Of a stretch of DNA of 64,000 bases, positions 22,482 to 52,020 are shown piece by piece (the first letter of the stretch is position 1; each line of letters starts with the position of its first letter). Origin of the DNA: Candidatus Roizmanbacteria bacterium (GTDB taxonomy: Bacteria; Patescibacteriota; Microgenomatia; UBA1406; GWC2-37-13). The stretch is taken from NCBI GenBank assembly GCA_963845895.1, contig CAWJTN010000001.1, positions 747,063-811,062 of the forward strand. The letters run 5' to 3'. Both the position numbers and the translations under genes were made by a program. The notes beneath the pieces were generated by a model. That model saw only the letters and a program-made list of their open reading frames with translations. It made no database searches and had not been told where the DNA came from.

Positions 22482-24401
22482 ATGAGTCAGACATATACGG
22501 TTAAAGAGGTCGCAGAGATGCTGGAATACTCGACAAACAGCATCTACTCTTTCTTAAAGGAGGGAAGGATTAAAGGGATTAGGGTAGGAAAGGGAAGATT
22601 TAGAATTTCTCAAGAAGAGATTGATCGTTTGCTTCAAACCAATAAGATTAAAGAAGAACCTCTATCTGTCGATTCACCTAGAGGAAATTATTTAAACCAA
22701 TCAGTCAATTCTTTAGCTGTGGATCTACCGGTTGAGGAAGTTTCCAGTTCTCTGCCCAAACTTAAAAAAACGGTTGAGCAGGTTAAGGTTAAAGTGCCAA
22801 GTCTTTTTGATTGGTTTATAGGTTTAGGCTCAATCATTTTTGGCATTACCGCGATTTTATTTGTAGGTCACACCAATGAATTAGGAATAAAAGATTATAC
22901 CTCTTTTATATTTCCTATCAAAATAACGATGATAGTTGGAGGTGTAGGTATCCTTTTAGCAGACATCATAGGGAAAGCTGGTATAAGGTGGCATAAGATT
23001 TTTTTCTTCATACTTGGGCTTGCTTACTGCAGTTTTACAGCTATCTATATTTCAGGTGGAGACCTTGAAGGAGCGGCTCTTTTTGGATTGACAACCTTGG
23101 TTATGTTTCTTCATATCATCTGGGAAATAGAAACTATAGCCAGCTTCATTTTATATGTTGGAGGGATTATTCTACTCATTCCTTTTGCTATTCTTATAAA
23201 ACCGTCCATATCCTTAGGTTTTCAACCAGCTTTACTAACATATTTTTCTCCACAAATGAATATGGTCATTTGGGGAGTTCTTTCAGCGATCGTTGCGCTC
23301 GTTTTAAGCTTAAGTTACACGAGATCCAACTTTGTTTTTAAGTTTGCCGTAATTCTAGTTACAGTTGACCTAGCGGTTTTATCTTATCTTTATGGTATTA
23401 ATCTTTTTTGGGGAAGATCTCTTTTTTTTCTTTTAGCAGCTTTACTCTGCATGTTTATCCCTCTCTGGCGGACTTTTCATTTCTTGAACAAATCAGATCG
23501 AAGGATAATTTTTGCCACTTTTGGAGCTATTTTTTTAATTTTTATTTTAATAATTTCTGTTTTATTGGTAATTCAGATAAATCTGAAGGTTTATGTTGGT
23601 TCGGAGTTAATTGATAAAACTAATTATGGTAAGAGTTTTCTAGATTCAGTGCTGACCACATCACAAGCAACTTTAGACAATCTTGATCAAAATCCTTTAC
23701 TTCAAGAGGCAATTGTTAAAAAAGATTCTAATACTTTCGATGATTTGGCAAGAGCGATCTTAGATGCAACTCCAAACTTTAGACGAATAGTAGTTTTTTC
23801 CTCAAATGGCGATAGTCTATTTATCTATCCTCATGGAGTCTTGACAGAGCCAAATATTTCTTTCCGTGACTACTTTAAAAAAGCAGTTACAGAAAAACAG
23901 AGCAACATTACGGATTCGTTTGAAACTAGGATAGATGGAGTGACAAGGAGCGTGGTTGCAGTTGCAACACCAATTCTGGATAGTAAAAATGATGTTGTTG
24001 GAGTTCTGGTAGGTTCACTGGATTTAGATTCGATCGGAAACAGAATTGGGAAAATGGCAAACGAAAGTAAAAAAGAATATTTTACGATCGTTGATCGAAC
24101 CGGGAAAGTCCTAATGGAATCTAACCAAAAATTAGTAAGCACGCAGTGGCCGCTTTATTCTTCAACAGTTGCAAAGAGATCGAGTGGTGAATTAGTAAGT
24201 CAGGATCCAAGTCCAAATGGCGATATTATTATTCACGCATACAGCGTTTTGGACAAAAATGGCTGGGGAGTTGATGTTGCTCAACCACTATCAGCTGCCT
24301 TAAGTATCACTGATAATGGAGCTTTTGTAGTTATTTCCTTAGTTCTTTTTTCTGGTCTAACCATAATTCAGTTTTTATCTTTTTTAAAGAAGCGTGATTA
24401 G
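22482..24401 (+). CDS. Membrane protein: N-terminal excisionase/MerR-type HTH, ~9 TM helices, extracytoplasmic Cache-like sensor domain, C-terminal TM
   Basis: YTVKEVAEMLEYSTNSIYSFLKEGRIKGIRVGKGRFRISQEEIDRLL is an HTH_17-like pattern. FRDYFKKAV..VVAVATPILDSKNDVVGVLVGSLDLDSI is Cache-like. Confidence 0.7.
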   Translation: MSQTYTVKEVAEMLEYSTNSIYSFLKEGRIKGIRVGKGRFRISQEEIDRLLQTNKIKEEPLSVDSPRGNYLNQSVNSLAVDLPVEEVSSSLPKLKKTVEQVKVKVPSLFDWFIGLGSIIFGITAILFVGHTNELGIKDYTSFIFPIKITMIVGGVGILLADIIGKAGIRWHKIFFFILGLAYCSFTAIYISGGDLEGAALFGLTTLVMFLHIIWEIETIASFILYVGGIILLIPFAILIKPSISLGFQPALLTYFSPQMNMVIWGVLSAIVALVLSLSYTRSNFVFKFAVILVTVDLAVLSYLYGINLFWGRSLFFLLAALLCMFIPLWRTFHFLNKSDRRIIFATFGAIFLIFILIISVLLVIQINLKVYVGSELIDKTNYGKSFLDSVLTTSQATLDNLDQNPLLQEAIVKKDSNTFDDLARAILDATPNFRRIVVFSSNGDSLFIYPHGVLTEPNISFRDYFKKAVTEKQSNITDSFETRIDGVTRSVVAVATPILDSKNDVVGVLVGSLDLDSIGNRIGKMANESKKEYFTIVDRTGKVLMESNQKLVSTQWPLYSSTVAKRSSGELVSQDPSPNGDIIIHAYSVLDKNGWGVDVAQPLSAALSITDNGAFVVISLVLFSGLTIIQFLSFLKKRD

Positions 24402-24405
24402 CCAA

Positions 24406-24480
24406 TTTTACAAGTTTTTACAAGTTTGTAACAACGATTGAAGATTATTTGAGGCTATTTTTATATTAATTTACAAGTAA
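24406..24480 (+). promoter_or_regulatory. Upstream region of the collagen-like gene with three TTTACAAGT direct repeats and a candidate promoter
   Basis: TTTTACAAGT occurs twice in tandem (24406-24425). TTGAAG-N17-TTATAT lies at 24438-24466. ATTTACAAGTAA at 24469-24480 abuts the ATG. Confidence 0.4.
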
Positions 24481-32295
<7,815 letters not shown>

Positions 32296-32297
32296 CT

Positions 32298-33926: not shown

Positions 33927-33928
33927 AT

Positions 33929-35899: not shown

Positions 35900-36834
35900 T
35901 GCTGATTATAATTTAAGACGTAGTCATAAACCATTGTCGACACGCTTTCCATCTCATTCCGAGCGGAGGTCTCGATGTTTCGACTCATGAGACAAAGTAT
36001 ATAAGGTCTTTTAGGGAGATAAACAATGCCACAGTCGGTATAGATTGAGCTATTTGGACTGTCCGGGTTGTAAACGCCAATTTTGTGAGCCACCTTTACA
36101 TCTTTGCCTACTCCAGCCACCAACTTGTCATTAAAGGAAGATTGGGTTAAAAGATCAAGAATTTCGTTAGAGTATTTTTCATCTAGATAGGATGAAAGAT
36201 AGAGGCTTCTTAAAATTGATGAGTAGTTTTTTGGAGTCACAACGGTATTTTCTTCCTCTCGATCCTTTAGAATATCGAGAGAATCAAATACATCTTCCAA
36301 AGAACCCGCTGGTAAAGCATCAAACAAAACGTTAGCTGCCGTATTGTCTGATTTTGTCAGAGCCAGATCTATTGCATCTTTTACTCTTATTTTCGCGCCG
36401 GCTCCCTTCTTCCAGAAGTCGCCGAAATTTTTGTCAATAGTTTCGTCTTTCACCGTCAAGACATCGTTCATAGACATCTGATTTTTTTCAATATATTTGT
36501 AAACTGCCATAACTAAAGGTACCTTTAAAAGGCTGGCAAGCACGTAGGATTTTGCCCCATTTACACCAATGGAAACGCCAGAAGGTAAATACTCAAAATA
36601 GATTCCCAGGTCAGATTTGTCTTTTCCATAGTTCGTCAGATTATTTCTAAGAGCGACAAAATTGATAAGAATGTCATTTTGATTTTCAGCAAATATTCGT
36701 GGGGACAGGTAAAGAAAGTCTGTATTCGATAACCTATTTTCTTTTGATAAAGGAGGCTTGTTGATAATAAAAAAGATGAGAGCAAAGTTTAATACTAAAC
36801 TAGCAATTAAAAAAACCAGACCTATCCTAGACAT
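35896..36834 (-). CDS. Beta-lactamase-fold (class A-like) serine hydrolase, membrane anchored
   Basis: SLLK (SxxK), SDNTAAN (SDN) and HKIG (KTG-like) motifs occur in the canonical order. An N-terminal TM helix is present. Confidence 0.65.
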   Translation of the reverse strand: MSRIGLVFLIASLVLNFALIFFIINKPPLSKENRLSNTDFLYLSPRIFAENQNDILINFVALRNNLTNYGKDKSDLGIYFEYLPSGVSIGVNGAKSYVLASLLKVPLVMAVYKYIEKNQMSMNDVLTVKDETIDKNFGDFWKKGAGAKIRVKDAIDLALTKSDNTAANVLFDALPAGSLEDVFDSLDILKDREEENTVVTPKNYSSILRSLYLSSYLDEKYSNEILDLLTQSSFNDKLVAGVGKDVKVAHKIGVYNPDSPNSSIYTDCGIVYLPKRPYILCLMSRNIETSARNEMESVSTMVYDYVLNYNQQ

Positions 36835-36872
36835 AACTCATATTATAGAGTATTCATGTTAGAATTTAAGGT

Positions 36873-38765
36873 ATGCTCATTCTTCTTTTACCATTATCAT
36901 GGCTACTAATATTTGTCAATTTTAACTTTCTATTCAATAAAAGGAAAAAAGACTATCCGGAATTGGAAGCGGTATTGATTGCAAGTATTTTTTGGCTGCT
37001 GATTCTTGTTTTTGTTACGGAGCTATTGTCACTATTTAACAGTCTAAATACTTTCTCCGTTGGCATAGCTTGGTTGTTGATTTCTCTAAGTTCAATTTTA
37101 TTACTGCTAATAAATAGAAGAAGAGGTTTTAAGTCGACTTTTAACTTTTCTTTTTATAAAGACCTGAATAATTTTTATAAACTTTTAGCTATCTTACTGG
37201 TCTTCATTTTGGCCGTCACTTTTATTTTAGGTTTGATATTTCCTCCAAACAATCCAGACGCGATGGCTTATCACTTGGCTAGGGTAATGCACTGGATACA
37301 AAATCAATCGGTAGCATTTTATCCGACTCATATCTTAAGACAAGATGTCTATCCGCCAGGAGCAGAGTATATCGCCTTACATGTTCTACTTTTGACAAGA
37401 TATGATTCTTTTGTCAATCTGATCCAATGGTTTAGTATGATAGGCAGCCTTGTAGCTGTGTATCTCATGGCCAGGCTGATTGGAGTTGGACGCAAAGGCC
37501 AGTTCTTGGCAGTATTATTTGCCGCCACTCTTCCAATAGGTGTTTTAGAATCGAATAGTGCCCAAAACGACTATGTTGCTGCCTTTTGGTTCATAACTTT
37601 TGTCTATTTTTTCTCTAAAGCACTACTAAAAAATTACTCATTTACCACTATCTTTTTAGGAGCTGCTGCACTAGGGTTAAGTATTTTTACTAAATCTTCA
37701 ACTTACTTTTTTGGAGCGGCGTTTCTAATCGTATTTTTCTTTATGTTGCTGAAAAAAAATGTAAAACAAACGTTCCTATATTTTGGTTTAACACTATTAA
37801 TAGTACTTTTAATCAATGCTCCTTTCTATATAAGAAATCTACTTTTATTTGGAAAACCATTGGGAGAGATATCAAGCATAAATGTAGCGAATACAGATTT
37901 ATCTTTCAGCAGAACTATTATCAATATTTTCAGCGAGTTTATGTACCAACTTTTCTCACCTTTAAAATTTCTAAACGTAATTATTAAGCTCGTATATTAT
38001 TTTATTGTTTCTTCGATATTTTCCGGCAATTTTTCCAATCCGACGATAAAAGATTTTATGGGGTTAGGATTTTTTATTAATGATGATTCAATGGTAAACA
38101 CACTTCATTTTTTGGCAATAATTGGAATATTATTTTATATGATTTTTACCTTTGGAAAAAAAATTTTTTTGAAATTATATTTTTTGGCTGCCGGCCTGGG
38201 CTTTTTATTTTTAAATTTTTTTATTGTTTGGACAAATTTTAATACAAGATACTATATATCTCTTTTCTTGGCTCTTTCTCCTTTAGCTGGGTTATGTCTA
38301 GAGAAGATCATTGACAGGAAATTTACTAAAATTTATTTTATTTCGATCATCAGCGTCGCTTTCTTTTACCTAATTTTTAATCAGGATAATTCGCTATTTA
38401 AAAAATTCGATAGAGAACAGGAGTATTTCAGTGGTTATTCCGATCCTCTCTATGTAGTGAGCAATAAGAAGTTGGCCGATGAGATAAAAAAGAGAAACTA
38501 TAGAAACATCGGACTAAACTTTGAGGAATTTTATTTTGAGTATCCTTTATGGGTATACCTAAAAGATAGGGGAGTTAAGGATTTTAGAATAGAGCATGTT
38601 GACGTTAGAAATAAGACATCAGAGGCAAAAATGAGTCAGTTTAAACCAGATGTAGTAATCATGTGTGATTCCTGTTTTAAAGATGCTCCAAAATATTATG
38701 CCATATATTCCAAATGGGCCAATGTGCGTATAAAAGTTACTTACTTTACCTTATACGGCAAATAA
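36873..38765 (+). CDS. GT-C-like polytopic membrane glycosyltransferase, paralogue A
   Basis: Multi-TM. PPNNPDAMAYHLARVMHWIQNQSVAFYPTHILRQDVYPPGAEYI is paralogous to the 39692-41557 product. Confidence 0.65.
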   Translation: MLILLLPLSWLLIFVNFNFLFNKRKKDYPELEAVLIASIFWLLILVFVTELLSLFNSLNTFSVGIAWLLISLSSILLLLINRRRGFKSTFNFSFYKDLNNFYKLLAILLVFILAVTFILGLIFPPNNPDAMAYHLARVMHWIQNQSVAFYPTHILRQDVYPPGAEYIALHVLLLTRYDSFVNLIQWFSMIGSLVAVYLMARLIGVGRKGQFLAVLFAATLPIGVLESNSAQNDYVAAFWFITFVYFFSKALLKNYSFTTIFLGAAALGLSIFTKSSTYFFGAAFLIVFFFMLLKKNVKQTFLYFGLTLLIVLLINAPFYIRNLLLFGKPLGEISSINVANTDLSFSRTIINIFSEFMYQLFSPLKFLNVIIKLVYYFIVSSIFSGNFSNPTIKDFMGLGFFINDDSMVNTLHFLAIIGILFYMIFTFGKKIFLKLYFLAAGLGFLFLNFFIVWTNFNTRYYISLFLALSPLAGLCLEKIIDRKFTKIYFISIISVAFFYLIFNQDNSLFKKFDREQEYFSGYSDPLYVVSNKKLADEIKKRNYRNIGLNFEEFYFEYPLWVYLKDRGVKDFRIEHVDVRNKTSEAKMSQFKPDVVIMCDSCFKDAPKYYAIYSKWANVRIKVTYFTLYGK

Positions 38766-38789
38766 CGGGTAAATAGGTGTAAAAAACAC

Positions 38790-38818
38790 TTGACTTTTTA
38801 TTTTCAAAAGATTATACA
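38790..38818 (+). promoter_or_regulatory. Candidate sigma70-type promoter (TTGACT-N17-TATACA)
   Basis: TTGACT at 38790-38795 and TATACA at 38813-38818, upstream of the pentapeptide-repeat reading frame. Confidence 0.4.
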
Positions 38819-39045
38819 ATTTATATACGAGAAAATTTTTTCCTGTAATAATTGCATTTCTTAGCGGGATTTTCATAGCTCAAATTGTTACTTCTGTAGT
38901 TGCTCAAATAGGAGATGCTAATCTGATTCATTCATGTGTAAAAAATAATAATGGCTCTATTCGTATTGTATCGTCTAGTGGGGATTGTTCTAGCAGTGAA
39001 ACTCCTTTAGCTTGGAATAAGCAAGGTGCTCCAGGTTTAGGGGTA

Positions 39046-39690
39046 TTGATTGACGATTTAACAAACGCAGATTTGTCTAATTCGGATTTCCGATTCAGAA
39101 ATTTGGATGAAAGAAATTTTACCGACAGCAACTTTACAGGAGCAAGCTTTGATAAAACTTCGATTAAAAATACAAACTTTTCGAACGCTATTTTCCCAGC
39201 GAGTCACATTGTTAATACAGATTTTACGACGGCTATTCTTAATGGTACAAGTTTTGGAGGGACCGTTCGATATTCCAATTTCTCCAACAAAGACCTCTCA
39301 TCTGTGCACATCGACCAAACAGATTTTACGTATTCAAATTTATCTAACGTAATATTACCGACAAGTATTAATAGTGTCACCTTTGACAACGCGAATTTAT
39401 CTGGAGTGAACTTTACATCAATAACAACACCATTAAATACGAGTTCCTTTGGGGGGACTAATCTTTCAAATACAAATTTCAGTAATGTAGATTTAAGTAA
39501 TAATATTCATTTTGATAATGCCAATTTTACTAATGCAAACTTAACTAATGTGAATTTCACAAATACAAATCTTATTTACGCAATTTTCACCAATTCAATA
39601 AGAACAGGAATCATTTGGTCAAATACAACATGTCCTGATGGAACGAATAGTAATAATAACGGGAATACTTGTGAAGGACATTTGACATAA
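39046..39690 (+). CDS. Pentapeptide-repeat protein (probably secreted; true start uncertain)
   Basis: A(D/N)LxX-type repeats run throughout (ADLSNSDFRFRNLDERNFTDSNFTGASF..). The frame is open back to 38794 and there encodes a signal-peptide-like segment, but with no ATG/GTG/TTG. Confidence 0.8.
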   Translation: MIDDLTNADLSNSDFRFRNLDERNFTDSNFTGASFDKTSIKNTNFSNAIFPASHIVNTDFTTAILNGTSFGGTVRYSNFSNKDLSSVHIDQTDFTYSNLSNVILPTSINSVTFDNANLSGVNFTSITTPLNTSSFGGTNLSNTNFSNVDLSNNIHFDNANFTNANLTNVNFTNTNLIYAIFTNSIRTGIIWSNTTCPDGTNSNNNGNTCEGHLT

Positions 39691-39691
39691 G

Positions 39692-41557
39692 TTAGTTTAA
39701 TACTATTAAAGGGACTTTCAGAATATTAGAGTATTTGGTTATTATCTTCTTATCACTCCCAATATAAAGGATTACATCAGGTGTGAATTTTTTTCTTATT
39801 AGAGTAGAAGATTTATTTGTTACTTCAAGATGCTCTATCCTAAATTTGTAATTCGAATTCCTTAGCAAGGCAATAAAGGGATACTCGACTCGAAATTCAT
39901 CATCGACAATAAAGCCAATATTTGCATATTCATGACTCATTATTGCGTTAACAGTCCGAGAAGCATAAAAATATTCGGGAAATCTTCCGTTAAAATATTG
40001 GACATCTCGGGGAATATTTATAATAGATCTGTCTGATGAAATAATTGGTTTCAAATTATTGAAAAAAAGATAGTATAAAGACGTAATTAACAATAAATAT
40101 ATCACTATCATTGTAATTTTTTGATTAATATTGTTCCAAAAAAAAGCGACAGGCACTGACCAGATGATGAACAAGGGGAGATGATACCTAGAGTTCCATA
40201 TTGACCAGCGTAATAATAAAGAAAATAAAAATAAAGCCGAGATTAAACTTAAAATAAATCCTCTTGAAAGTTTAAGTCTCTTGATTAGATAAAAGAACAA
40301 GGTAATAAAGATAATAAATAAATGAAGAGGGTTGATGGCGATATTTTCGTCTGGTATTATGGAAAAGAAAGAAAAGCGAGCATTGTACCAGTTTAATGAC
40401 GGGTCATTTACACTTATGCCCAAAATTTTATGAATTTTAATTACCAGATCATAAAAAAAAGTATTTACAACAGTACTTGGTAGCCAAAAATGCATGCTGG
40501 TATTTTTTATCATATTTGACAGGCCAGCAATTAATGAAATATTGGAATTTAGATGATTATAAGAGCTGCCTATCGGAACTCCATAAAAATTTATATTACG
40601 AAGATAATAACCTAAATTAAGTAAAATGACTGATAAAAAAATTGTTAAACAATAAATTATCAAACTTTTTTTATTCTTTCGAAACAAAACAAACAGGAAC
40701 CAAATAAGAAAAGGTAAAGCAAAAGTATAAGCGGTCCCTTTGGTAAGAAGAGCTAATCCTAATGAAAGAGAGGAAAATATATAATGGTAAATTTTTTCTG
40801 TTTTAGCTGACAAGAGACCGAAATAAATAAAACAGACCAACCAAAGCGAGACAACCAAATCATTTTGGGCGCTAGAGGCTTGTAAGATACCCATAGGGAT
40901 AGTTACTGTAAAGATTATTGAAAAAATCTGGGTAAGATAGTTACCACCCATAATTTTTGTAATTAAACTTATCCCTAAGATGACACCGATAAGAGACATC
41001 CACTGTACTGCATTCGATAATCTATCTCCACCACTAAAAATTCGGAATTGGGCAACAATAAACTCTGCGCCGGGAGCCATATAGTTTTGCCTGACAATAT
41101 TTGTTGGGTAAAAGGCAACAGTTTGATTTTGTATCCAGTGTTCAATTCTTGCCAAGTGATAACTCATGGCATCAGGATTGTTTGGAGCAGTAAAAAGGGC
41201 TAATAATCCTGCAAGCAAAATTATCCCGAAAACAGGTAGCAGAAGTTTATTAGCTAAATCGGAAAAATTTTGAAAATTTAAAATAATTGGGTGAAGGTTG
41301 ATATATTCAATCCTTGAAATCAAAAAAATGACCATGACCAAAATACAGATAACAATAGTCCAAATAAAAAGAAGACTTTGGAAATTATAATAATTAAAAT
41401 AACTCAACACTTCTGTGAAAATTATTACGAGTGTTCCCCAGACTATGACGCTTAAGAGGATTCGTTCCCTGATGTCAGATTTTTTTAATATTGGTAGATC
41501 TTTTAGAGTAAAGATAAAAATAAGAAACCATGCTAAAATAGGAACAAAGACAAACAT
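39692..41557 (-). CDS. GT-C-like polytopic membrane glycosyltransferase, paralogue B
   Basis: APNNPDAMSYHLARIEHWIQNQTVAFYPTNIVRQNYMAPGAEFI. The architecture matches 36873-38765. Confidence 0.65.
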   Translation of the reverse strand: MFVFVPILAWFLIFIFTLKDLPILKKSDIRERILLSVIVWGTLVIIFTEVLSYFNYYNFQSLLFIWTIVICILVMVIFLISRIEYINLHPIILNFQNFSDLANKLLLPVFGIILLAGLLALFTAPNNPDAMSYHLARIEHWIQNQTVAFYPTNIVRQNYMAPGAEFIVAQFRIFSGGDRLSNAVQWMSLIGVILGISLITKIMGGNYLTQIFSIIFTVTIPMGILQASSAQNDLVVSLWLVCFIYFGLLSAKTEKIYHYIFSSLSLGLALLTKGTAYTFALPFLIWFLFVLFRKNKKSLIIYCLTIFLSVILLNLGYYLRNINFYGVPIGSSYNHLNSNISLIAGLSNMIKNTSMHFWLPSTVVNTFFYDLVIKIHKILGISVNDPSLNWYNARFSFFSIIPDENIAINPLHLFIIFITLFFYLIKRLKLSRGFILSLISALFLFSLLLRWSIWNSRYHLPLFIIWSVPVAFFWNNINQKITMIVIYLLLITSLYYLFFNNLKPIISSDRSIINIPRDVQYFNGRFPEYFYASRTVNAIMSHEYANIGFIVDDEFRVEYPFIALLRNSNYKFRIEHLEVTNKSSTLIRKKFTPDVILYIGSDKKIITKYSNILKVPLIVLN

Positions 41558-41565
41558 TTTTTAAA

Positions 41566-42678
41566 TTATAGTCGATCATGACAGAAATAACAATTTTTTG
41601 TATAAGTCACATACATTTGAGACTCTGGAGGTAAAATTTTTAACAGATGGTTAATTGGTGAAACATTGTTAAGTGACTTATGAACTCGTTTAGTATTGTA
41701 CCAGACCAAATAATCCATTAAACGGGAATTAAATTCGTCTATCCCGTCAAGTGCATATTCTTCATGACCATTAATAAATTCTTCTTGTAGGGTTCTGTTG
41801 GCGCGTTCAACAAAACCATTGATTTTTGGGCATCTCGGATAGATAAATAAATGTTTAATGTTTTTTCTTTTAAGATAATCATCAAAGTCTCCCATAAACT
41901 CAAGACCGTTATCTGTTTGAATTGTATGTATCTTGTTTAGGATAGGATAAACTAACTCAAGCTTCCTCATAAAATCTAAGCTGTTTTGGCTGTTGAGTCT
42001 GATGTAGCCGTAGGAGAATTGGAATTTGAGGTTAACGTCAACGGCATTTAGGATGTATAGCTTAATGCCATGGATAAACTTAACAATTGTATCAATCTCA
42101 ATGTAACCAACTCCTATCGGTTTAGGAGATTTCTTAACCTTTAGTTTGTATGATAGCCTCGCTTTAGAATGACGATGAAGCGGGTTATGGTAAATTCTTC
42201 TTGATTTGGAATAGAGATTATGGCGCTTAATAACTTTTCCAATAGTTGACTCTGAGATTGACTTAATATTTTCTTTTAGGCAATATTCTTCAAGTAGTGG
42301 TTTAATCTTTTCTTTGCCTAGATGGCCATATTGTTCCCGAAGTGATTTGATAAATTCGATAATCTTAAAGTTAGTATTCATGACCCTTTTTCTTTTAGGA
42401 GACCTCGAAGCTGGTACTAGACTTTCAAGTCTACCCAAATTATCTTTAAGTGTTTTCTTCCATCGGTATATTGTTGGCTTGGAGATCTCAAAGGCTTCAA
42501 CGGTTGCCCTTGTTCCATACTTACCATGAAACTCGATAATCTTTAACCTAGTCTCAGCCATTTGAGACTTGCTGAAAAACAAAACAGAGCGTATTGATCT
42601 TCTCATTCGCCCATTATACAGAGGCGTGTCCATAAACAAATCCTGATACGAAGTTGAGACTCCTAGAGACCCTTTCAT
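41566..42678 (-). CDS. IS481-family DDE transposase (HTH + rve integrase core)
   Basis: HTIQTDNGLEFMG..YPRCPKINGFVERANRTLQEEF..YLVWYNTKRVHKSL. The likely real start is an internal Met (MAETRLKII.., ATG 42561). The 3' end runs through the left IR. Confidence 0.85.
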   Translation of the reverse strand: MKGSLGVSTSYQDLFMDTPLYNGRMRRSIRSVLFFSKSQMAETRLKIIEFHGKYGTRATVEAFEISKPTIYRWKKTLKDNLGRLESLVPASRSPKRKRVMNTNFKIIEFIKSLREQYGHLGKEKIKPLLEEYCLKENIKSISESTIGKVIKRHNLYSKSRRIYHNPLHRHSKARLSYKLKVKKSPKPIGVGYIEIDTIVKFIHGIKLYILNAVDVNLKFQFSYGYIRLNSQNSLDFMRKLELVYPILNKIHTIQTDNGLEFMGDFDDYLKRKNIKHLFIYPRCPKINGFVERANRTLQEEFINGHEEYALDGIDEFNSRLMDYLVWYNTKRVHKSLNNVSPINHLLKILPPESQMYVTYTKNCYFCHDRL

Positions 42679-42733
42679 AGAGATTAAATGAAATTCCCAA
42701 AAGTCTCATATGTATCGTAACTTTTTCATTTTT
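41599..42733 (-). mobile_element. IS481-family insertion sequence (~1.13 kb)
   Basis: Imperfect terminal inverted repeats: TAAGTCACATACATTTGAGACTCTGG (41603-41628) against the reverse complement of 42707-42733 (AAGTTACGATACATATGAGACTTTTGG). A single DDE transposase ORF lies inside. Confidence 0.65.
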
Positions 42734-42748
42734 ACTTAGGAAGGTTAA

Positions 42749-43471
42749 CTATCGATGGTTTAACAGATTTTTGAGATAGATTTTAAGCAGTATGAAGAAA
42801 TTCCAGATGACAAATAAAAAAGACTGGACAAAATTTACAGACGTGTGCGGTTTGTTGTAGTAACAACGAACGGGAACCTCGCCAATTTTTAGATTGTGGT
42901 TAAGACATTGAATGATTATTTCCAAGCTGAAATAAAATTCATTGCTCATTTTATCCAATGGAAGAGTTTTTACTAATTTTTTACTATAAATTCTAAATCC
43001 GTCATTGAAATCAGTTAAGGGGACGCCAATGATAAGACGGTCTAAATGACTTAAGATGACGTTGGCAATAAATCTGTGTAAAGGCATCCCATCTTTTAAA
43101 GCTTGATTCGGAGTAATGAATCGAGATCCTGACAAGAGATCCAGTCCCTTTTCCTGCATAATCTTTACTTTTTCAGATATTTTTGAAATTTCGTATTGGC
43201 CATCTCCATGTATTTCTACCATATAGTCTGCTCCAAGTTTTAGGGCTTTTTTTAAGCCATATTTGAGATTACCACCATAACCTAAGTGTGAGTGCGAATA
43301 AACTTTCAATCCTAATTTTTTTACTATTTCAACAGAGTTATCGGTGGAGCCGTCGTCTACAACAATAATCTTATAGAAAGATTTCTTAGGAAGTAATTTA
43401 AACAATTTAGGAACAAATTTACCATCGTTGTGTATCATGATAATGCCGATTATTTTATTTTGCTTTTTCAT
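42749..43471 (-). CDS. Family-2 glycosyltransferase (Dpm1/GtrB-like)
   Basis: IGIIMIHNDG..IIVVDDGSTDNS..DYMVEIHGDGQY. ATG 43471 is preferred over TTG 43489. Confidence 0.85.
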   Translation of the reverse strand: MKKQNKIIGIIMIHNDGKFVPKLFKLLPKKSFYKIIVVDDGSTDNSVEIVKKLGLKVYSHSHLGYGGNLKYGLKKALKLGADYMVEIHGDGQYEISKISEKVKIMQEKGLDLLSGSRFITPNQALKDGMPLHRFIANVILSHLDRLIIGVPLTDFNDGFRIYSKKLVKTLPLDKMSNEFYFSLEIIIQCLNHNLKIGEVPVRCYYNKPHTSVNFVQSFLFVIWNFFILLKIYLKNLLNHR

Positions 43472-43472
43472 T

Positions 43473-44255
43473 CTAAAAATTTTTACCAATGACGATTTCC
43501 CTTAAAAGATAATAGATAAATTTTAAGCCGGTGGGAATTGCAGATGCTCCGCTCTTACCTCCAATTCTTTGTCCTTCAACTGTTGGGATTTCAGCGATTT
43601 TTAATCCTAATTTTAAAGCACGGATCGTCATCTGGTACTCGATGGCAAAACCCTCCGCATCAAGATGGAGTTTGTTGAAGGAACTTTTTTTAATTGCACG
43701 GTAACCATTTATAGAATCGGTAATTGAACTTTTTGCTAGATTCTGTCCCGAGTTTCCCTCCCGCCAGTGCTCACTTCGTTGCGCGCTGTCGGGAGCCCTT
43801 CCACTCGTGCCACCTAGCAAAAAATTATTCCACAAGATATTTGCTAGCAACGTAAATCCCTGGTTTGCCCATTTGCGAAACTTCAAAAGCTTGTGATCCT
43901 CTTCGTTTTTTGATCCTTTTTTAAAACGCGAAGCGATTGCCAAATCATAACCTTTAGTCAAAATATTAATCAATTTTGGAATATCAGCTGGGTTTTCATT
44001 GCCGTCTGGACTAAAAAAAATTAGAATGTCTCCTTTTGCTTTTTTTGCACCAATTCTAAAAGCTTCCGCACGTCCGGGTTTTTTTTGTTTAACAATGGGT
44101 ATCTTATTTTTTTTAAAAAATTCAACGGTTCCGTCGGTTGAGTTGTAGTCTACAGCAAAATATTCATCAACGCTAGAGAAAGGGATTTTTTTTATGAGTT
44201 TTTTGAGACCAGAGATTTCATTGCGGGTTAAGATAATGAGAGTTGATTTAATCAT
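43473..44255 (-). CDS. Family-2 glycosyltransferase carrying an in-frame repeat-element insertion
   Basis: LIILTRNE..AVDYNSTDGT..ILIFFSPDGNE. The GC-rich segment translated as GGTSGRAPDSAQRSEHWREGNSGQN interrupts the conserved region before ITDSINGYRAI. ATG 44255 is preferred. Confidence 0.8.
   Translation of the reverse strand: MIKSTLIILTRNEISGLKKLIKKIPFSSVDEYFAVDYNSTDGTVEFFKKNKIPIVKQKKPGRAEAFRIGAKKAKGDILIFFSPDGNENPADIPKLINILTKGYDLAIASRFKKGSKNEEDHKLLKFRKWANQGFTLLANILWNNFLLGGTSGRAPDSAQRSEHWREGNSGQNLAKSSITDSINGYRAIKKSSFNKLHLDAEGFAIEYQMTIRALKLGLKIAEIPTVEGQRIGGKSGASAIPTGLKFIYYLLREIVIGKNF
43740..43814 (+). repeat. 75-nt GC-rich palindromic inner element inserted inside a GT2 coding sequence
   Basis: ATTCTGTCCCGAGTTTCCCTCCCGCCAGTGCTCACTTCGTTGCGCGCTGTCGGGAGCCCTTCCACTCGTGCCACC has the same length and core as 22061-22135. 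It is flanked by TAG on both sides. Confidence 0.7.
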
Positions 44256-45216
44256 AATTTTCTTTATACCACTCAATGGTTTTTTGTAAGCCAAAATTGA
44301 GCGGAGTTCTTGCTATAAAACCAATTTTTTCTTTGGCTTTTTTTGTAGAGATTATTCTTCTTGGGTGTCCGTCAGGTTTGCTTTTGTCGAATAAAACTTT
44401 AGTTTTTTTACCTGACAATTTTACTATCATTTTTGCAAGATTAGCGATCGTTATTTTTTCGTCTGATGCTAAATTTATCGGTTCGGCAAAAAAATATTTT
44501 TCAACTGCTTTTAGTAATCCTTCGGTCAAATCTTCAACGAAGATAAAGGATCTGATTTGTTTTCCTGAACCCCAGACCCTCAAAGGACTTTCATTATTAA
44601 AAACTCTTCTAATTAAAGATGGAATTACATGGGATATTCTAGGATCAAATTTATCATTTGGACCGTAAACATTTGTCGGACGAACTACTGCAATTTTCAT
44701 GCCAAATTGATCTGAATATGTTTTGGCCATAATTTCAGTAACTCTTTTAGCCCAACCATAGCCGAAGTTTGTTTTTTCCGGCTGACCTACAAATCCATAT
44801 TCTTCTTCTATTGGAGTAGTGCAGTCTTCAGAATAAACACAGACAGAGCTCATCAGCAAAAGTCGTTCAACATGATTAATTCTTGCAGCTTCAAGCATGT
44901 TTTCAGTTATTTCTAGATTGTCTTTGAGCATCGTACCTGAATGTTTTAAATTATATTGGATGCCAGCAACATGAGCCGCTAGATTTAGGACAATTTCTTT
45001 ATTTTTTGTTACCGAAACAGCATTCGTAAAGTTGGAAAGATCAGTTTTAACTATTCTTAAATCCTTTTTTAGGGATAAAATATTCTTGAGGTTGCCTCGG
45101 AACGTTGTAATTGTTACGTCCGCCCCTTTTTTTAAAAGAAGTCTGGCAAGGTTTGACCCAATGAATCCTGTACCACCTGTAAGAAGTACCTTTTTTCCTT
45201 TCCAAAAGTTAAACAT
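44248..45216 (-). CDS. NAD(P)-dependent sugar epimerase/reductase (extended SDR; GDP-fucose/colitose-synthase-like)
   Basis: LLTGGTGFIGSNL is the Rossmann motif and YGWAK is the YxxxK motif. Confidence 0.85.
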   Translation of the reverse strand: MFNFWKGKKVLLTGGTGFIGSNLARLLLKKGADVTITTFRGNLKNILSLKKDLRIVKTDLSNFTNAVSVTKNKEIVLNLAAHVAGIQYNLKHSGTMLKDNLEITENMLEAARINHVERLLLMSSVCVYSEDCTTPIEEEYGFVGQPEKTNFGYGWAKRVTEIMAKTYSDQFGMKIAVVRPTNVYGPNDKFDPRISHVIPSLIRRVFNNESPLRVWGSGKQIRSFIFVEDLTEGLLKAVEKYFFAEPINLASDEKITIANLAKMIVKLSGKKTKVLFDKSKPDGHPRRIISTKKAKEKIGFIARTPLNFGLQKTIEWYKENYD

Positions 45217-45223
45217 ATTTAAA

Positions 45224-45306
45224 GGTTATTTCAAAACCTCTGATCTTGTTAGATTCTGTCCCCGCTGAGCGGGGCCACCTGTCATAAATAGAAGTAGGTT
45301 TTGAAT
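45224..45306 (+). repeat. Short form of the nested palindromic element (outer ends + 27-nt minimal hairpin)
   Basis: GGTTATTTCAAAACCTCTGATCTTGTTAG-ATTCTGTCCCCGCTGAGCGGGGCCACC-TGTCATAAATAGAAGTAGGTTTTGAA. Confidence 0.6.
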
Positions 45307-45352
45307 CAGTTTTAATTTGAGAAGATAATAGCAGATTTTTTAGCTGTTTTCA

Positions 45353-46531
45353 CTAAGTAAAAACCTTAAGAATTTCTTTTATTTCTTTAGATGTCAGTTC
45401 TGGATTATTTCCAAAATAAAGACCTTGTTCATGGATAAGCTTAGCATTAGAATTGCCTAAAACATCTTGATATTTCTTCATGTATTTTTCAAAAAAGGGT
45501 TGCTTGGTCATATCTCCTCCAACGATCGGTCTGATCTCAATTTTCCAGTTGCATCTTTTGACAAGATCGCTTTTGATTTTCTTGGAACGGCAGATTATAG
45601 GTATTGAAAAGCTTGAAAGAAAATCCATGTGTTTATACTTTATCGGATAATATTTATTGGTTTTTTTGTAAATTTTACTAGCTAAGATTAAAAAATTTCT
45701 ATTTCTTTTTTTAACTATCTCGTCAATATATTTCAGTTGAACATTCCCTAAAAATCCAGCAACTTCAGTCGGTCGAAAGTTGTAGCCGAGATCATAAAAG
45801 GTATAGCGGGAGTAAAAAGAGGAGTTGATCTGAAATTTTTTTCTTAGATTTTTTTGTTTGGCAAGATTGAGATTCCTGTCCCAACCGTGGGCTCTGACTA
45901 TCCGAAGCATGGTGGTGATCTGGTCGTCATCCGTTGTAACAGCTCCACCTTCTATGGTTGATAGGTGATGGCCAACATAGAAAGAAAAAGTGCTTGCCAG
46001 ACCAAAGTTTCCCAGCTTTCTTCCTTTATAAATAGAACCTAGTGCTTCACAGTTGTCTTCGATTAAAATAACATTTTTTTTATTGCATATATCCTGGATC
46101 TTATCTATATCATCACATAGGCCAAGTAAATTTGTCAGAAAAACCATTTTGAGCGGATATTTTGAAAGTATCTTTTTTAAAGTTCGGCTTGAGACGTTTA
46201 ACGTTTCCAGCTCAACATCGATTGGTACAGCTTGAAGACCGAGTTGAATCAGAGGCATCACATTAGTTGACCAGGTGACTGCCGAGAAACCTACAAAGTC
46301 TCCCTTTTTTATTTTTCCCAGATTCAGAAGCGCCTGAATTATTGCCAGATTTGCCGAACTTCCGCTGTTTAAAAATACACAGTTTTTTCTTCCCTGATAT
46401 CCGGAGAAATTTTTTTCAAAAAGTTCACATCGTTGACCGAAGCTTAGTTGATTTGCCGATTTTATAAACTCAACAATAGCTTTTTTTGTCTCTAATTCTT
46501 TATAGAAGGTTGATTTGACAAGTTTTATCAT
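45353..46531 (-). CDS. DegT/DnrJ/EryC1 fold enzyme of the sugar 3-dehydratase type (ColD/E1-like)
   Basis: Has the DegT family layout. In FSFYVGHHLSTIEGG a His occupies the position of the PLP-binding Lys. Confidence 0.75.
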   Translation of the reverse strand: MIKLVKSTFYKELETKKAIVEFIKSANQLSFGQRCELFEKNFSGYQGRKNCVFLNSGSSANLAIIQALLNLGKIKKGDFVGFSAVTWSTNVMPLIQLGLQAVPIDVELETLNVSSRTLKKILSKYPLKMVFLTNLLGLCDDIDKIQDICNKKNVILIEDNCEALGSIYKGRKLGNFGLASTFSFYVGHHLSTIEGGAVTTDDDQITTMLRIVRAHGWDRNLNLAKQKNLRKKFQINSSFYSRYTFYDLGYNFRPTEVAGFLGNVQLKYIDEIVKKRNRNFLILASKIYKKTNKYYPIKYKHMDFLSSFSIPIICRSKKIKSDLVKRCNWKIEIRPIVGGDMTKQPFFEKYMKKYQDVLGNSNAKLIHEQGLYFGNNPELTSKEIKEILKVFT

Positions 46532-46576
46532 GATTTTCTTGACTTAATTATAGTATAGTCATTATAATTATAAGGC

Positions 46577-48842: not shown

Positions 48843-48871
48843 TTGATTATTTCTTCGATTACTGCTAGAGT
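48843..48871 (+). promoter_or_regulatory. Promoter TTGATT-N17-TAGAGT, 7 nt before the ATG (leaderless layout)
   Basis: -35 at 48843-48848, -10 at 48866-48871, ATG at 48879. No SD. Confidence 0.5.
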
Positions 48872-48878
48872 GAATCTA

Positions 48879-51935: not shown

Positions 51936-51984
51936 AAACATTTAATGTGTAATATTTCTTTCATGGCTCCGAATCGTTTGATAC

Positions 51985-52013
51985 TTGATACTTACTTCTC
52001 TTATTGTTAGATT
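51985..52013 (+). promoter_or_regulatory. Promoter TTGATA-N17-TAGATT, 7 nt before the ATG
   Basis: -35 at 51985-51990, -10 at 52008-52013, ATG at 52021. Confidence 0.5.
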
Positions 52014-52020
52014 ATTATTA

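Follow-up and report, generated by a model that had tools for sequence, protein, structure and literature searches.

The fiber locus of this tiny-genome CPR/Microgenomates bacterium raises the question of whether the genes adjoining a giant collagen-like gene form a dedicated system for glycosylating its product. A sequence-only reading had proposed a self-contained system consisting of a sensor, a Thr-rich collagen fiber and a single 14-kb glycosylation island, and all the genes it listed are present where it had placed them. In the analyzed stretch of DNA (64,000 nt; hereafter the window), the giant gene (24481-32295, plus strand) and the gene for GTC542 (32298-33926, minus strand) are convergent, with stops 2 nt apart. 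The block that starts at this junction (32298-46531, 14.2 kb) also contains three genes that had gone unmentioned, encoding a PBP-A-like enzyme (35896-36834, minus strand), a pentapeptide-repeat protein (39046-39690, plus strand) and an IS-type transposase (41566-42678, minus strand).

The neighbor of the giant gene, GTC542 (542 aa), has no Pfam match, and we assigned it to the GT-C-fold glycosyltransferases with AlphaFold and Foldseek: the AF2 model (pLDDT 91.9) matched ArnT, STT3/PglB, DPY19, ALG9, Pmt, AftB and Emb with E-values down to 6e-7, ArnT being the best match. Counting against the fiber as the acceptor, ArnT modifies lipid A, and AftB and Emb modify polysaccharide. The GTC542 family, with 56 homologs, is previously undescribed. 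Its invariant residues are W284-C285-C286 and the acidic motif D72-E73-D74-R75-Y76, which is predicted to lie on the outer face because a positively charged loop precedes the preceding TM helix. The adjoining TPR656 (33929-35899, minus strand; 656 aa) is a polytopic protein whose C-terminal part carries an alpha/beta domain and TPR repeats (Pfam TPR matches in 14 of 15 orthologs); directly after TM1, D33 is invariant and H37 nearly so. Its modeled likeness to the GT-C fold is moderate, the best full-length Foldseek match of the AF2 model (pLDDT 83) being the C-mannosyltransferase DPY19 (E 3.7e-3, TM 0.46). BLA312, the PBP-A-like gene product, is a membrane-anchored serine enzyme of the class-A beta-lactamase fold (Pfam Beta-lactamase2, E 8.5e-40; best PDB match Tll2115 of Thermosynechococcus, E 5.5e-18) with the invariant motifs S101-x-x-K104, S162-D-N164 and K251-x-G253, and is probably a DD-peptidase. 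Just beyond the region covered by the sequence-only reading, we identified a membrane-anchored LytR_C-domain protein (46577-47284, plus strand; Pfam LytR_C, E 1.7e-6).

The far end of the block contains putative sugar-donor genes. GT2_273 (43473-44294, minus strand) and GT2_246 (42749-43489, minus strand) are both closest, in NCBIfam, to polyprenyl-phosphate sugar synthases (PpgS, AglJ, Dol-P-hexose transferase), at scores far below the curated equivalog cut-offs. The conserved GT2 of the module, GT2_273, is AglJ/Dol-P-hexose-transferase-like and without a predicted TM helix in the TM scan, and only its copy in the window has an in-frame insertion, which is 33 aa long and forms a hairpin. The lineage-specific GT2_246 has a single TM helix, at its C-terminus, and its nearest match is PpgS, a polyprenyl-phospho-GalNAc synthase. 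These matches, together with the GTC542 fold, bear out the pairing of Dpm1/GtrB-like enzymes with GT-C proteins that had been suggested. The predicted SDR epimerase/reductase, SDR322 (44248-45216, minus strand), was confirmed as a GDP-L-fucose-synthase/ColC-like 3,5-epimerase-4-reductase (NCBIfam Fcl, E 2.4e-60, below the cut-off; PDB GDP-L-fucose synthase, E 1.6e-49), and the ColD/E1-type assignment also holds for the PLP/PMP-dependent sugar 3-dehydratase of the DegT family (45353-46531, minus strand; PDB ColD 2gms, E 5.5e-59), in which the ColD His-His is conserved within SFYVGHHLSTIEGG. This ColD-like dehydratase is lineage-specific, the DegT proteins of relatives being only 26-28% identical to it. 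The set is not self-contained, as neither Gmd (GDP-mannose 4,6-dehydratase) nor ManC/pyrophosphorylase was found in the 64,000-nt window; no flippase gene was identified.

Instead of a single dedicated island, the block is composite: PMT630, the pentapeptide-repeat protein, PMT621, the IS transposase and GT2_246 make up a lineage-specific insert that is missing from all relatives, except that PMT630 is common to the closest one. In that relative (L023), the sole ortholog of PMT630 (36873-38765, plus strand; Pfam PMT_2, 30.0 bits vs a cut-off of 26.1) is 51% identical and adjoins the BLA312 ortholog; the other 20 relatives lack it. PMT621 (39692-41557, minus strand; Pfam PMT_2, 29.1 bits, same cut-off) is a paralog with 33% identity to PMT630. 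Thus, four GT-C-like proteins are present as claimed, two recognized via Pfam PMT_2 and two via AlphaFold/Foldseek. The accessory pentapeptide-repeat protein (Pfam Pentapeptide, E 4.6e-25) has no predicted TM helix and no ortholog in the conserved clusters. The transposase, with an HTH and an rve_3 integrase core (Pfam, E 5.7e-14), lies within a minus-strand gene array, and terminal inverted repeats of at least 14 nt were not found.

The fiber protein starts with an N-terminal part (aa 1-307; 24481-25401, plus strand) in which the TM scan places a signal-anchor helix at aa 12-30, followed by a globular domain that is 30-33% identical to those of two relatives (L001 and L003); the non-collagen orthologs have an unlike N-terminal domain in its place. 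The collagen-like stalk (aa 308-1751; 25402-29733, plus strand; Pfam Collagen, E 3.6e-173) comprises 480 Gly-X-Y triplets in three runs with two short breaks between them, GPT accounting for 208. At the Y positions we counted 329 Thr and 107 Ser, in agreement with the several hundred proposed previously. The stalk DNA has periods of 9, 90, 135 and 189 nt and a GC content of 0.56, vs 0.35 in the flanks. As a triple helix, the stalk would extend over ~410 nm (roughly 0.4 micrometre) at 0.286 nm per residue. Among the relatives, the stalk is collagen in 7 and non-collagen but Thr/Ser-rich in 10, with Thr/Ser/Gly/Asn-rich repeats in the non-collagen stalks of other species, and only 1 of the best 149 family representatives has a collagen stalk. 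Collagen is therefore one interchangeable variant stalk within a family of 1600-5400-aa fiber proteins, in which Ser+Thr content is 23-40% in every stalk type.

The conserved part of the fiber is its C-terminal region of ~850 aa, consisting of a family-specific head, an auto-chaperone motif, a terminal domain and a Ser/Thr/Pro-rich tail; full-length matches were limited to ~15 representatives among 1.84 billion. In an alignment of 15 orthologs (A2; 38-45% identity), the head (29734-31053, plus strand; ~440 aa) has invariant Cys and Trp, is specific to the fiber family and has no Pfam or PDB sequence match. It is followed by a phi29 gp12-like intramolecular (auto-)chaperone/Peptidase_G2-like domain (31054-31503, plus strand) that begins G2192-A-D2194-L-A-E2197-N-Y, with a putative autocleavage site immediately before D2194. 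Pfam Peptidase_G2 matches 6 of the 15 orthologs (best E 5.2e-7), the window copy falling below threshold, and when the A2 profile is compared with PDB (E 0.063), residue 1 of 3gqh, the cleaved gp12 fragment, falls on the invariant D-x-A-E. For the window copy itself, this evidence is weak. Because the C-terminus carries this motif, the fiber is probably trimeric. The protein ends with a beta-rich domain and a 69-aa disordered tail (31504-32295, plus strand, from A2; tail 38% S+T, 20% P), and all 15 orthologs end in an S/T-rich tail of 60-216 aa. In one orthologous fiber, the C-terminal tail contains a peptidoglycan-cleaving M23 domain. The auto-chaperone-like and terminal domains are widespread in other large proteins and are alone matched by most of 1452 representatives (E<=1e-10). 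We found no phage genes near the fiber gene, and the viral contig collection contained no relatives.

Which genes accompany the fiber was assessed by searches from both sides, from GTC542 (3 context look-ups and 16 genome loci) and from the giant C-terminal region (7 metagenome loci, with GTC542 and TPR656 in 6 of 7), de-duplicated into a synteny table of 21 distinct relatives. The giant gene is present in the cluster in 20 of these and TPR656 in 20, followed by BLA312 (16, at times in 2-3 copies), LytR_C (12, near the cluster), GT2_273 (9) and SDR322 (8). The GT2_273 count comprises orthologs in 7 relatives (54-60% identity) and two GT2 genes of 23-27% identity (L015, L016), the SDR322 orthologs are 33-53% identical, and, as many cluster contigs end early, the GT2 and SDR counts are lower bounds. 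In 20/21 relatives the giant gene lies tail-to-tail with GTC542, at 35-53% protein identity, and TPR656 adjoins GTC542 equally often; the stop-to-stop gap between the giant gene and GTC542 is -41 to +20 nt in 17 of 24 loci. Flanking genes past the core cluster, including those on the LytR_C side, vary among loci. Exactly at the GT-C/giant junction, other relatives have insertions that encode further polytopic WDD+TPR proteins, sugar C-methyltransferases or a B12-radical-SAM enzyme; extra TPR-GT-C-like genes are inserted there in three relatives. Recurring in 20/21 relatives at 35-53% identity, the adjacency of the giant gene and GTC542 is beyond chance, and the agreement of the reciprocal searches supports the functional link of the fiber gene with genes of the extracytoplasmic-glycosylation type. 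These genes are linked to the conserved tip domain of the fiber, not to collagen repeats: ten relatives keep the GT-C/TPR/PBP-like genes beside an orthologous giant gene without Gly-X-Y, which contradicts the proposed link to collagen and Thr in Y. Hence, the glycosylation genes are conserved in the absence of collagen in those ten, but not in the absence of the fiber. What stands of the sequence-only reading is the link between fiber and glycosylation genes, the GT2/GT-C logic and the ColD assignment; the collagen link, the single island and self-containment do not.

The sensor is only partly tied to this core. Upstream of the fiber gene, a 639-aa membrane one-component regulator (22482-24401, plus strand) has an N-terminal HTH_17 DNA-binding domain (Pfam, E 2.9e-10), ~10 TM helices, an extracytoplasmic dCache_1 domain (E 2.9e-20) and a last TM helix. 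It is thus present as proposed, but is conserved upstream in just 3 of 6 testable loci, the window included: L001 and L003 alone have an ortholog immediately upstream of the giant gene, its place being taken by a small HTH_17 gene in L004. The HTH-dCache protein probably regulates fiber expression in this sub-lineage.

The closest known logic is that of the Pgf cluster of Streptococcus mutans and of Pmt/Ppm1 in Actinobacteria, and the earlier suggestion of novelty does not hold as stated, comparable cluster logic being already known in S. mutans (Pgf) and Actinobacteria (PMC11092751). In S. mutans, PgfS (GT-A), PgfE (epimerase) and PgfM1/M2 (GT-C) O-glycosylate the Ser/Thr-rich adhesins Cnm, CnaB and CbpA of the same cluster, and with GtrB/PgtC2 of S. 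pyogenes and S. pneumoniae, Ser/Thr-rich C-terminal disordered regions are glycosylated (PMC11092751). As in Pgf, a putative GT-A/GT2 polyprenyl-phosphate-sugar enzyme, an epimerase-type SDR and two GT-Cs are clustered with the gene of a Ser/Thr-rich surface protein, the catalytic acidic GT-C motif would face outward, and the candidate acceptors are Ser/Thr-rich, often C-terminal and disordered. Unlike in Pgf, the GT-Cs lack a YfhO Pfam match (GTC542 belongs to no Pfam family and TPR656 matches TPR only), TPRs are present on one of the GT-Cs, the conserved core includes a PBP-A-like enzyme, and the candidate substrate is not an LPXTG adhesin but a 1600-5400-aa fiber with a phage-like C-terminal auto-chaperone; the hosts are CPR bacteria. 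PMT630 and PMT621 resemble the actinobacterial O-mannosylation enzymes (Pmt, of family GT39, together with Ppm1, a polyprenyl-phosphate mannose synthase) in matching Pfam PMT_2, but the GT39 PMT model matches none of the proteins here, and none of them has MIR domains. Actinobacterial Pmt serves many substrates as a general enzyme encoded outside any cluster, whereas GTC542 is tied to a single substrate-candidate gene.

Among collagen-like surface proteins, BclA of Bacillus anthracis contains ~20-80 triplets and ends in a C1q/TNF-like domain. A rhamnose oligosaccharide with a rare deoxysugar as its cap is attached to its Thr residues by soluble mother-cell enzymes rather than by a GT-C with lipid-linked donors. 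The fiber shares with BclA, Scl1/2 and C. difficile BclA a long Gly-Pro-Thr run and the putative nature of a surface filament, and a set of deoxysugar-pathway genes lies nearby here, but it differs from BclA in its 480 triplets, its unrelated 850-aa C-terminal region and the interchangeability of its stalk. In the Arn pathway, ArnB (DegT-type), ArnA (SDR), ArnC (GT2) and ArnT (GT-C) modify lipid A. The locus offers a similar series, in which a DegT-family enzyme and an SDR would feed a GT2 acting on undecaprenyl phosphate and then an outside GT-C, with ArnT as the closest structural neighbor of GTC542. Here, however, the DegT enzyme is a dehydratase, whereas ArnB is an aminotransferase, and lipid A synthesis is not known from CPR bacteria of this group. 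The strict linkage to a protein gene speaks for a protein-related role. In phi29 gp12/Peptidase_G2, T5 pb1 and K1F endosialidase, folding of the trimer is nucleated by a C-terminal domain that autoproteolysis releases (PMC4690869). The invariant D-x-A-E of the fiber family aligns with the start of the cleaved fragment, cleavage being putative here, but, unlike phage fibers, the fiber is encoded by a cellular gene, has an N-terminal signal-anchor and continues with further domains after the chaperone-like one.

Taken together, we give about even odds (roughly 0.5) to the reading that a conserved module of Microgenomates (Gottesmanbacteria/Levyibacteriota-type CPR) serves to build and decorate a giant fiber on the cell surface, probably a trimer, and we infer that the fiber itself is glycosylated. 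A tentative alternative, about which we are clearly more doubtful, is that the wall or membrane has a glycoconjugate, possibly a peptidoglycan- or lipid-linked polymer, which is built or modified by GTC542, TPR656, the GT2, the PBP-A-like enzyme and the LytR_C protein, and on which the fiber docks or through which it threads without being the glycosyl acceptor. The DD-peptidase-like PBP-A homolog with intact SxxK/SDN/KxG and the LytR_C protein in the conserved cluster, the action of ArnT, AftB and Emb on lipid or polysaccharide, and the M23 domain in one fiber tail are consistent with such a polymer, as is the fact that the association tracks the C-terminal region, a possible glycan-binding anchor, rather than the stalk. 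Yet a general wall polymer is not expected to be made strictly beside one gene in 20/21 species or by a family as narrow as 56 homologs, and the extra TPR-GT-C-like genes in three relatives are located precisely at the fiber-gene junction. Moreover, the TPR-bearing GT-C enzymes with an established function (TMTC; PMC11292533) act on proteins.

It is more improbable that GTC542 and TPR656 are inactive as transferases and instead help the giant trimer to be secreted and folded, as membrane chaperones or a scaffold; the TPRs would then grip the nascent chain, the PBP-like enzyme would open the wall and the sugar genes would serve unrelated envelope glycans. TPR domains are indeed protein-binding modules, and GT2_273 (9/21) and SDR322 (8/21) are less frequent than the near-universal GTC542 and TPR656; these frequencies are, however, minima on contigs that end early, and the invariant D-E-D-R-Y of GTC542, at the typical catalytic GT-C loop position, and the invariant Asp after TM1 of TPR656 argue for activity. 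Least credible, and already disfavored, is a chance placement of general envelope glycosylation genes beside the fiber gene in a compact genome. CPR genomes are gene-dense, and PMT630, the pentapeptide-repeat protein, PMT621, the IS element, GT2_246 and the ColD-like gene are not conserved with the fiber gene, but the adjacency of the core is reciprocal and near-universal at only 35-53% protein identity while the outer flanking genes vary, and the tight stop-to-stop junction is conserved.

If the module does decorate the fiber, the SDR, with the ColD-like dehydratase in this lineage, would convert a nucleotide sugar to a 6-deoxy- or 3,6-dideoxyhexose of the colitose type; GT2_273 would load a sugar onto polyprenyl phosphate, and the lipid-linked sugar would then be flipped outward. 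The TPR domain would hold the protein substrate, and PMT630, PMT621 and GT2_246, added in this lineage, would probably lengthen the glycan or make it more diverse. The PBP-A-like enzyme may remodel or cross-link peptidoglycan where the fiber crosses or anchors. After glycosylation, the C-terminal auto-chaperone would nucleate trimerization, including that of the collagen triple helix, and may self-cleave before D2194. Sugars may be attached to the stalk, to the conserved S/T-rich tail or to both; were the C-terminal part removed by cleavage, any glycan on the tail would end up on a discarded propeptide.

The giant gene of the window (24481-32295, +) encodes a collagen-like protein of 2604 aa and converges, across a gap of 2 nt, on a predominantly minus-strand block. 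The genes in this block code for GTC542, a polytopic protein of 542 aa (32298-33926, -), TPR656, a polytopic protein of 656 aa with TPRs (33929-35899, -), BLA312 of the Beta-lactamase2 family (35896-36834, -), the PMT_2 proteins PMT630 (36873-38765, +) and PMT621 (39692-41557, -), a pentapeptide-repeat protein (39046-39690, +), the GT2 proteins GT2_246 (42749-43489, -) and GT2_273 (43473-44294, -), the SDR protein SDR322 (44248-45216, -), and a DegT-family protein (45353-46531, -); a gene for a LytR_C protein follows (46577-47284, +). Between PMT621 and GT2_246, the minus-strand array is broken by an IS-type transposase gene (HTH_32/rve_3; 41566-42678, -), around which no inverted repeats of at least 14 nt were detected. 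On its other side, the giant gene is flanked by a sensor gene (22482-24401, +), the product of which combines HTH_17, ~10 TM helices and dCache_1. A sequence-only reading of this DNA had described a sensor, a giant Thr-rich collagen fibre and a dedicated 14-kb glycosylation island; its gene list and the convergent junction agree with the gene map, to which we add BLA312, the pentapeptide-repeat protein and the transposase.

The contig that holds the window measures 1.23 Mb. The GC content is ~0.35 across the region and 0.56 in the collagen-coding stretch. No tRNA genes and no Rfam matches were found in the window, and promoter and terminator scans gave counts not above the shuffled expectation, the only notable promoter-scan feature being a pair of 11/12 divergent promoter-like sites at 46539-46596. 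The neighbouring genes are typical of CPR bacteria (T4SS-like pilin, VirB4-like ATPase, prepilin peptidase), and homologues of the cluster genes were found in MAGs titled Candidatus Gottesmanbacteria and Levyibacteriota. Elsewhere in the window, 5634-7918 and 10459-16929 encode an EcoRI-type adenine methylase adjoining a GmrSD/HNH endonuclease, together with a LexA-like repressor, a T4SS-like pilin, a PrgI-like protein, a VirB4/TraG-like ATPase and an M23 peptidase. The stretch at 48843-62302 encodes five consecutive large secreted proteins with dockerin type I domains, which are unusual for a CPR genome; three of the five carry PQQ-like beta-propellers and two carry Apiosidase-like (GH140-type) catalytic domains, in one case along with CBM6/35. 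The GC content of this stretch (0.43-0.45, against 0.35 nearby) suggests acquired DNA.

Reciprocal synteny strongly supports a link between the glycosylation genes and the fibre protein as such. Three distant GTC542 homologues on long contigs all share one gene order, namely, GT2, Beta-lactamase2, a ~670-aa polytopic/TPR protein, the GT-C protein and a convergent gene for a protein of 1600-2350 aa, with a dCache/HTH_17 protein next after the giant in two of the three. With the GTC542 alignment, a scan of GTDB genomes (one for each species) yielded 16 loci, whose ORFs were compared with the window proteins by BLASTP; a metagenome scan with A2, an alignment of the giant C-terminal region, yielded seven, and in six of these GTC542 and TPR656 lie immediately downstream in convergent orientation. 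After duplicate removal, 21 distinct relatives remained. The giant C-terminal region is encoded beside GTC542 in 20 of the 21 (the exception is a truncated contig), as is TPR656 (20/21), and the GTC542 clusters include BLA312 in 16 relatives and the LytR_C protein in 12. GT2_273 was found in nine (54-60% identity in seven, the other two being GT2 genes at 23-27%), SDR322 in eight (33-53% identity), a distant DegT protein in three, the sensor in two, and PMT630 in the closest relative only (1/21); PMT621, the pentapeptide-repeat protein, GT2_246 and the transposase were found in none of the 21.

In 17 of 24 loci, the stops of the giant and GT-C genes lie -41 to +20 nt from each other, and many of them overlap by 4 nt. 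Because so tight a junction leaves no room for a terminator, convergent read-through or antisense interference is possible there (32295/32298 in the window, and equivalents). In one partial relative (L032), only the last two C-terminal subdomains are shared and no GT-C gene lies nearby on the short contig, so we claim the tight GT-C link only for the full C-terminal architecture. Many MAG records of loci L006-L021 are titled 'uncultured Gammaproteobacteria' or 'Pseudomonadales' bacterium (TPA assemblies); these titles are likely placeholder or wrong taxonomic labels, since the gene content matches that of the Gottesmanbacteria and Levyibacteriota loci.

The conserved partner is the C-terminal part of the fibre protein rather than its collagen. 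The giant orthologues share ~850 C-terminal residues at 38-45% identity and differ in their stalks: Gly-X-Y runs, with 26 to 440 triplets seen, are present in seven relatives, and ten relatives without Gly-X-Y have Thr/Ser/Gly/Ala/Asn-rich repeats and a different N-terminal domain. In all stalk types, Ser and Thr together make up 23-40%. When 1.84 billion representatives were searched exhaustively by HMMER with the C-terminal region, ~15 proteins matched its full length; 81 passed E<=1e-30 and 1452 passed E<=1e-10, the majority of the latter having only the last two subdomains. Among the 149 best matches, only one had at least 20 Gly-X-Y triplets. A word-indexed search with the same region returned only three matches, the Pro/Thr tail probably swamping the word index. 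The glycosylation genes are thus kept in relatives that lack a collagen stalk, and the proposed dedication of these genes to collagen does not hold.

The window protein has a signal-anchor helix (residues 12-30) and 480 Gly-X-Y triplets in residues 308-1751, in uninterrupted runs of 49, 52 and 379, with Pro in X 233 times, Thr in Y 329 times and Ser in Y 107 times (GPT, 208 times). These runs are long enough for a triple helix (Pfam Collagen, E 3.6e-173), and at the established collagen rise of 0.286 nm per residue, the stalk would be ~410 nm long. The last 853 residues alone have no Pfam or PDB sequence match. In particular, Pfam detects no C1q/TNF-like trimerisation domain in the giant C-terminal region, unlike the BclA-type exosporium glycoproteins, which end in such a domain. 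Pfam Peptidase_G2 (PF11962), the domain that serves phi29 phage gp12 as an autoproteolytic intramolecular chaperone, matches six of the 15 orthologues (best E 5.2e-7), the window protein not being one of them. When the A2 profile was compared with the PDB, an invariant D-x-A-E aligned, at a weak E of 0.063, to the very first residues of 3gqh, the cleaved gp12 fragment; D443, A445 and E446 of A2 (D2194, A2196 and E2197 of the protein; nt 31054 onward) are invariant in the 15 orthologues. In trimeric phage fibres, folding is brought about by C-terminal chaperone domains of the Peptidase_G2 type, which are released afterwards (PMC4690869). Given this Peptidase_G2/gp12-like motif, the fibre would be a trimer, which fits the collagen triple helix, and its C-terminal region possibly undergoes self-cleavage, with a putative site before the conserved Asp.

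A prophage tail-fibre origin of the locus was considered and rejected, the 853-aa C-terminus being without PDB, PHROGs or viral-contig relatives. The auto-chaperone-like and terminal beta domains also stand at the ends of over 1400 representatives with lengths of 200-5400 aa (for example, P0086, 5399 aa), and this pair of subdomains seems to form a common C-terminal module of giant fibrous proteins that has so far gone undescribed. An S/T-rich tail, mostly of 60-113 aa and often Pro-rich, closes each of the 15 aligned orthologues and is a conserved candidate glycan acceptor. The fibre orthologue of a Levyibacteriota MAG (L015:9224-15412, JBLMVJ010000034.1) has a Peptidase_M23 domain inserted in its C-terminal tail (E 3.9e-24), a hint of contact between the end of the fibre and the peptidoglycan of the cell itself or of a host.

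The 56 homologues of GTC542 share 35-53% identity, and a few have a precomputed weak PMT_2 match. In a Foldseek search with the AF2 model (pLDDT 91.9, pTM 0.92), the top 17 matches (E<=1e-3) were all GT-C enzymes (ArnT, STT3, PglB, AglB, DPY19 and ALG9), and the significant matches as a whole, likewise all GT-C, were headed by ArnT and extended to Pmt1/2 and AftB; judged by this model, GTC542 is a polytopic membrane protein of the GT-C fold. Its D72-E73-D74-R75-Y76 motif, an acidic motif of the DxD/ExD type near the N-terminus, is invariant in 45 sequences and is predicted to face outward because the preceding inter-helix loop is K/R-rich; W284-C285-C286 is also invariant. In TPR656, an invariant D33 and a nearly invariant H37 directly follow TM1. 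The best full-length Foldseek match of its AF2 model (pLDDT 83) is the C-mannosyltransferase DPY19 (E 3.7e-3, TM 0.46), with AftB lower, and the only GT-C match of the family in Pfam is PTPS_related in one distant homologue, so that its assignment as GT-C-like has moderate support. TPR matches in Pfam lie C-terminal to the TM block in 14 of 15 TPR656 orthologues, a layout shared with TMTC-type O-mannosyltransferases, but the PMT_2/DUF1736-type signature of those enzymes is absent from all 15 orthologues and from 16 wider homologues. Comparison of the GTC542 and TPR656 families by hhalign was negative, and their profiles retrieved only noise or TPR matches from PDB sequences. PMT630 and PMT621 are paralogues (33% identity), both above the PMT_2 (PF13231) cut-off. 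None of the four polytopic proteins has a Pfam PMT or MIR match, and YfhO is absent in both Pfam and NCBIfam; membership of GT39 (Pmt) or of the YfhO/PgfM/PgtC2 type was accordingly rejected. GTC542 and TPR656 would each represent a GT-C family not described before, with the fibre as a clear candidate substrate; the assignment of the latter is the more moderate one. Their putative donor is a polyprenyl-phosphate-linked sugar, as the resemblance of the nearby GT2 proteins to polyprenyl-phosphate sugar synthases suggests.

Both of these, GT2_246 and GT2_273, passed Pfam Glycos_transf_2, and their best NCBIfam matches (PpgS, AglJ, Dol-P-hexose transferase) score 78-81 bits against cut-offs of 325-375, that is, far below the curated level. 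One C-terminal TM helix is predicted in GT2_246 and none in GT2_273; Dpm1-type enzymes can lack C-terminal TM helices. GT2_273 contains an in-frame GC-rich insertion of ~99 nt (33 aa; 43727-43826, minus strand), absent in all seven aligned orthologues. The insertion has inverted repeats at its ends (TTGCTAG...CTAGCAA), folds into a long hairpin (dG -41.4 kcal/mol, z -5.0), occurs only once in the window and matches nothing in Rfam. The DegT protein is closest to ColD (2gms, E 5.5e-59), with its HH aligned to that of ColD, the first His of which is residue 188 according to the H188N mutant entry 3b8x. Since His-His replaces the PLP-binding aminotransferase Lys in this ColD-like sequence, the protein is best assigned as a ColD/E1-type 3-dehydratase, in agreement with the sequence-only reading. 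Together with SDR322, which is GDP-L-fucose-synthase-like by NCBIfam and PDB comparison, it points to a 3,6-dideoxyhexose of the colitose type; the window ORFs scanned include neither Gmd nor ManC, so the GDP-L-colitose set (ManC, Gmd, ColD, ColC) is incomplete in the window. BLA312 is membrane-anchored (Pfam Beta-lactamase2, E 8.5e-40), with S101-x-x-K104, S162-D-N164 and K251-I-G253 invariant in 13 orthologues, and among solved structures it comes closest to the DD-peptidase-like Tll2115/PBP-A. A true class A beta-lactamase was rejected (NCBIfam bla_class_A, 84 bits against a cut-off of 200); no invariant Glu occurs in the stretch preceding the invariant K202-N203-Y204, which we take to correspond in position to that of the general-base Glu166.

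The block is composite. In most relatives with GT2_273, this gene lies beside BLA312 or within one contiguous array with it, and in the window the two are 6.6 kb apart (36873-43489), separated by PMT630, the pentapeptide-repeat protein, PMT621, the transposase and GT2_246. Because of the arrangement in the relatives, this stretch is, on gene order, a lineage-specific insert. What stands of the sequence-only reading is therefore the observation itself and the link between fibre and GT-C proteins; collagen as the partner and a single dedicated 14-kb island do not. By Pfam and hydropathy, the sensor places HTH_17 in the cytoplasm, followed by a TM block, a dCache domain on the outside and one last TM helix. 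Its orthologues immediately precede the giant gene in L001 and L003, both with the window-type N-terminal fibre domain, and are absent in L004, L015 and L025. Regulation of the fibre by the sensor is plausible as a sub-lineage feature.

The main uncertainty concerns the acceptor of the GT-C enzymes, which could be the fibre itself or its anchor, a wall or lipid glycan. The contents of the GT-C/giant junction hint that the glycosylation genes serve the fibre: L014 (11653-13428) and L018 (11645-14750) each have one extra polytopic WDD-motif and TPR protein there, L021 (11647-16444) has two, L018 and L021 also encode NDP-sugar C-methyltransferase-like proteins (Methyltransf_14), and L025 (8471-9901) has a B12-binding radical SAM enzyme. 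We consider an anchoring glycan, with the fibre left unmodified by these enzymes, rather unlikely, and give glycosylation of the fibre a probability of about 0.5.

Actinobacterial Pmt/Ppm1 and the Arn pathway follow the same three-step logic as the module. The closest precedent for the module is the Pgf cluster of S. mutans, in which PgfS (GT-A), PgfE (epimerase) and the GT-C proteins PgfM1/M2 O-glycosylate the Ser/Thr-rich adhesins Cnm, CnaB and CbpA, encoded in the same cluster. GtrB and PgtC2, a related pair, act outside the membrane on disordered regions that are rich in Ser/Thr and often C-terminal, and glycosylate them (PMC11092751). The Pgf and Pmt systems employ YfhO-type or GT39 GT-C enzymes, whereas those of the window are neither; the module further differs from known systems in the TPRs on one GT-C protein, in a PBP-A-like enzyme as a core component, and in its substrate candidate, a giant fibre with a phage-type auto-chaperone. 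The full-text literature yielded nothing that links collagen-like proteins with CPR bacteria, and no such glycosylation cluster described in Gottesmanbacteria or other CPR bacteria.

A life in attachment to host cells is generally assumed for CPR bacteria (Patescibacteria), yet very little is known of the structures by which they attach or of the glycobiology of their envelope. Tentatively, the parts of the module can be combined into a CPR-specific host-attachment organelle, a procollagen-like, O-glycosylated fibre of ~0.4 micrometre that would be longer than the cell itself. The C-terminal phage-type auto-chaperone would register the triple helix and then be self-cleaved, a dedicated pair of undescribed GT-C enzymes, one with TPRs, would O-glycosylate the fibre during export, and the PBP-like enzyme would handle its passage through, or anchoring in, the wall. 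Swapping of stalk cassettes (collagen or beta-repeat) and of sugar-tailoring genes between species would then diversify the host range. The module is a concrete conserved candidate for attachment, a giant, probably trimeric fibre with its own modification enzymes, in which the collagen triple helix is one interchangeable stalk behind a conserved tip, and in which a phage-type auto-chaperone would be linked to a cellular collagen-like protein, paralleling the animal procollagen C-propeptide.
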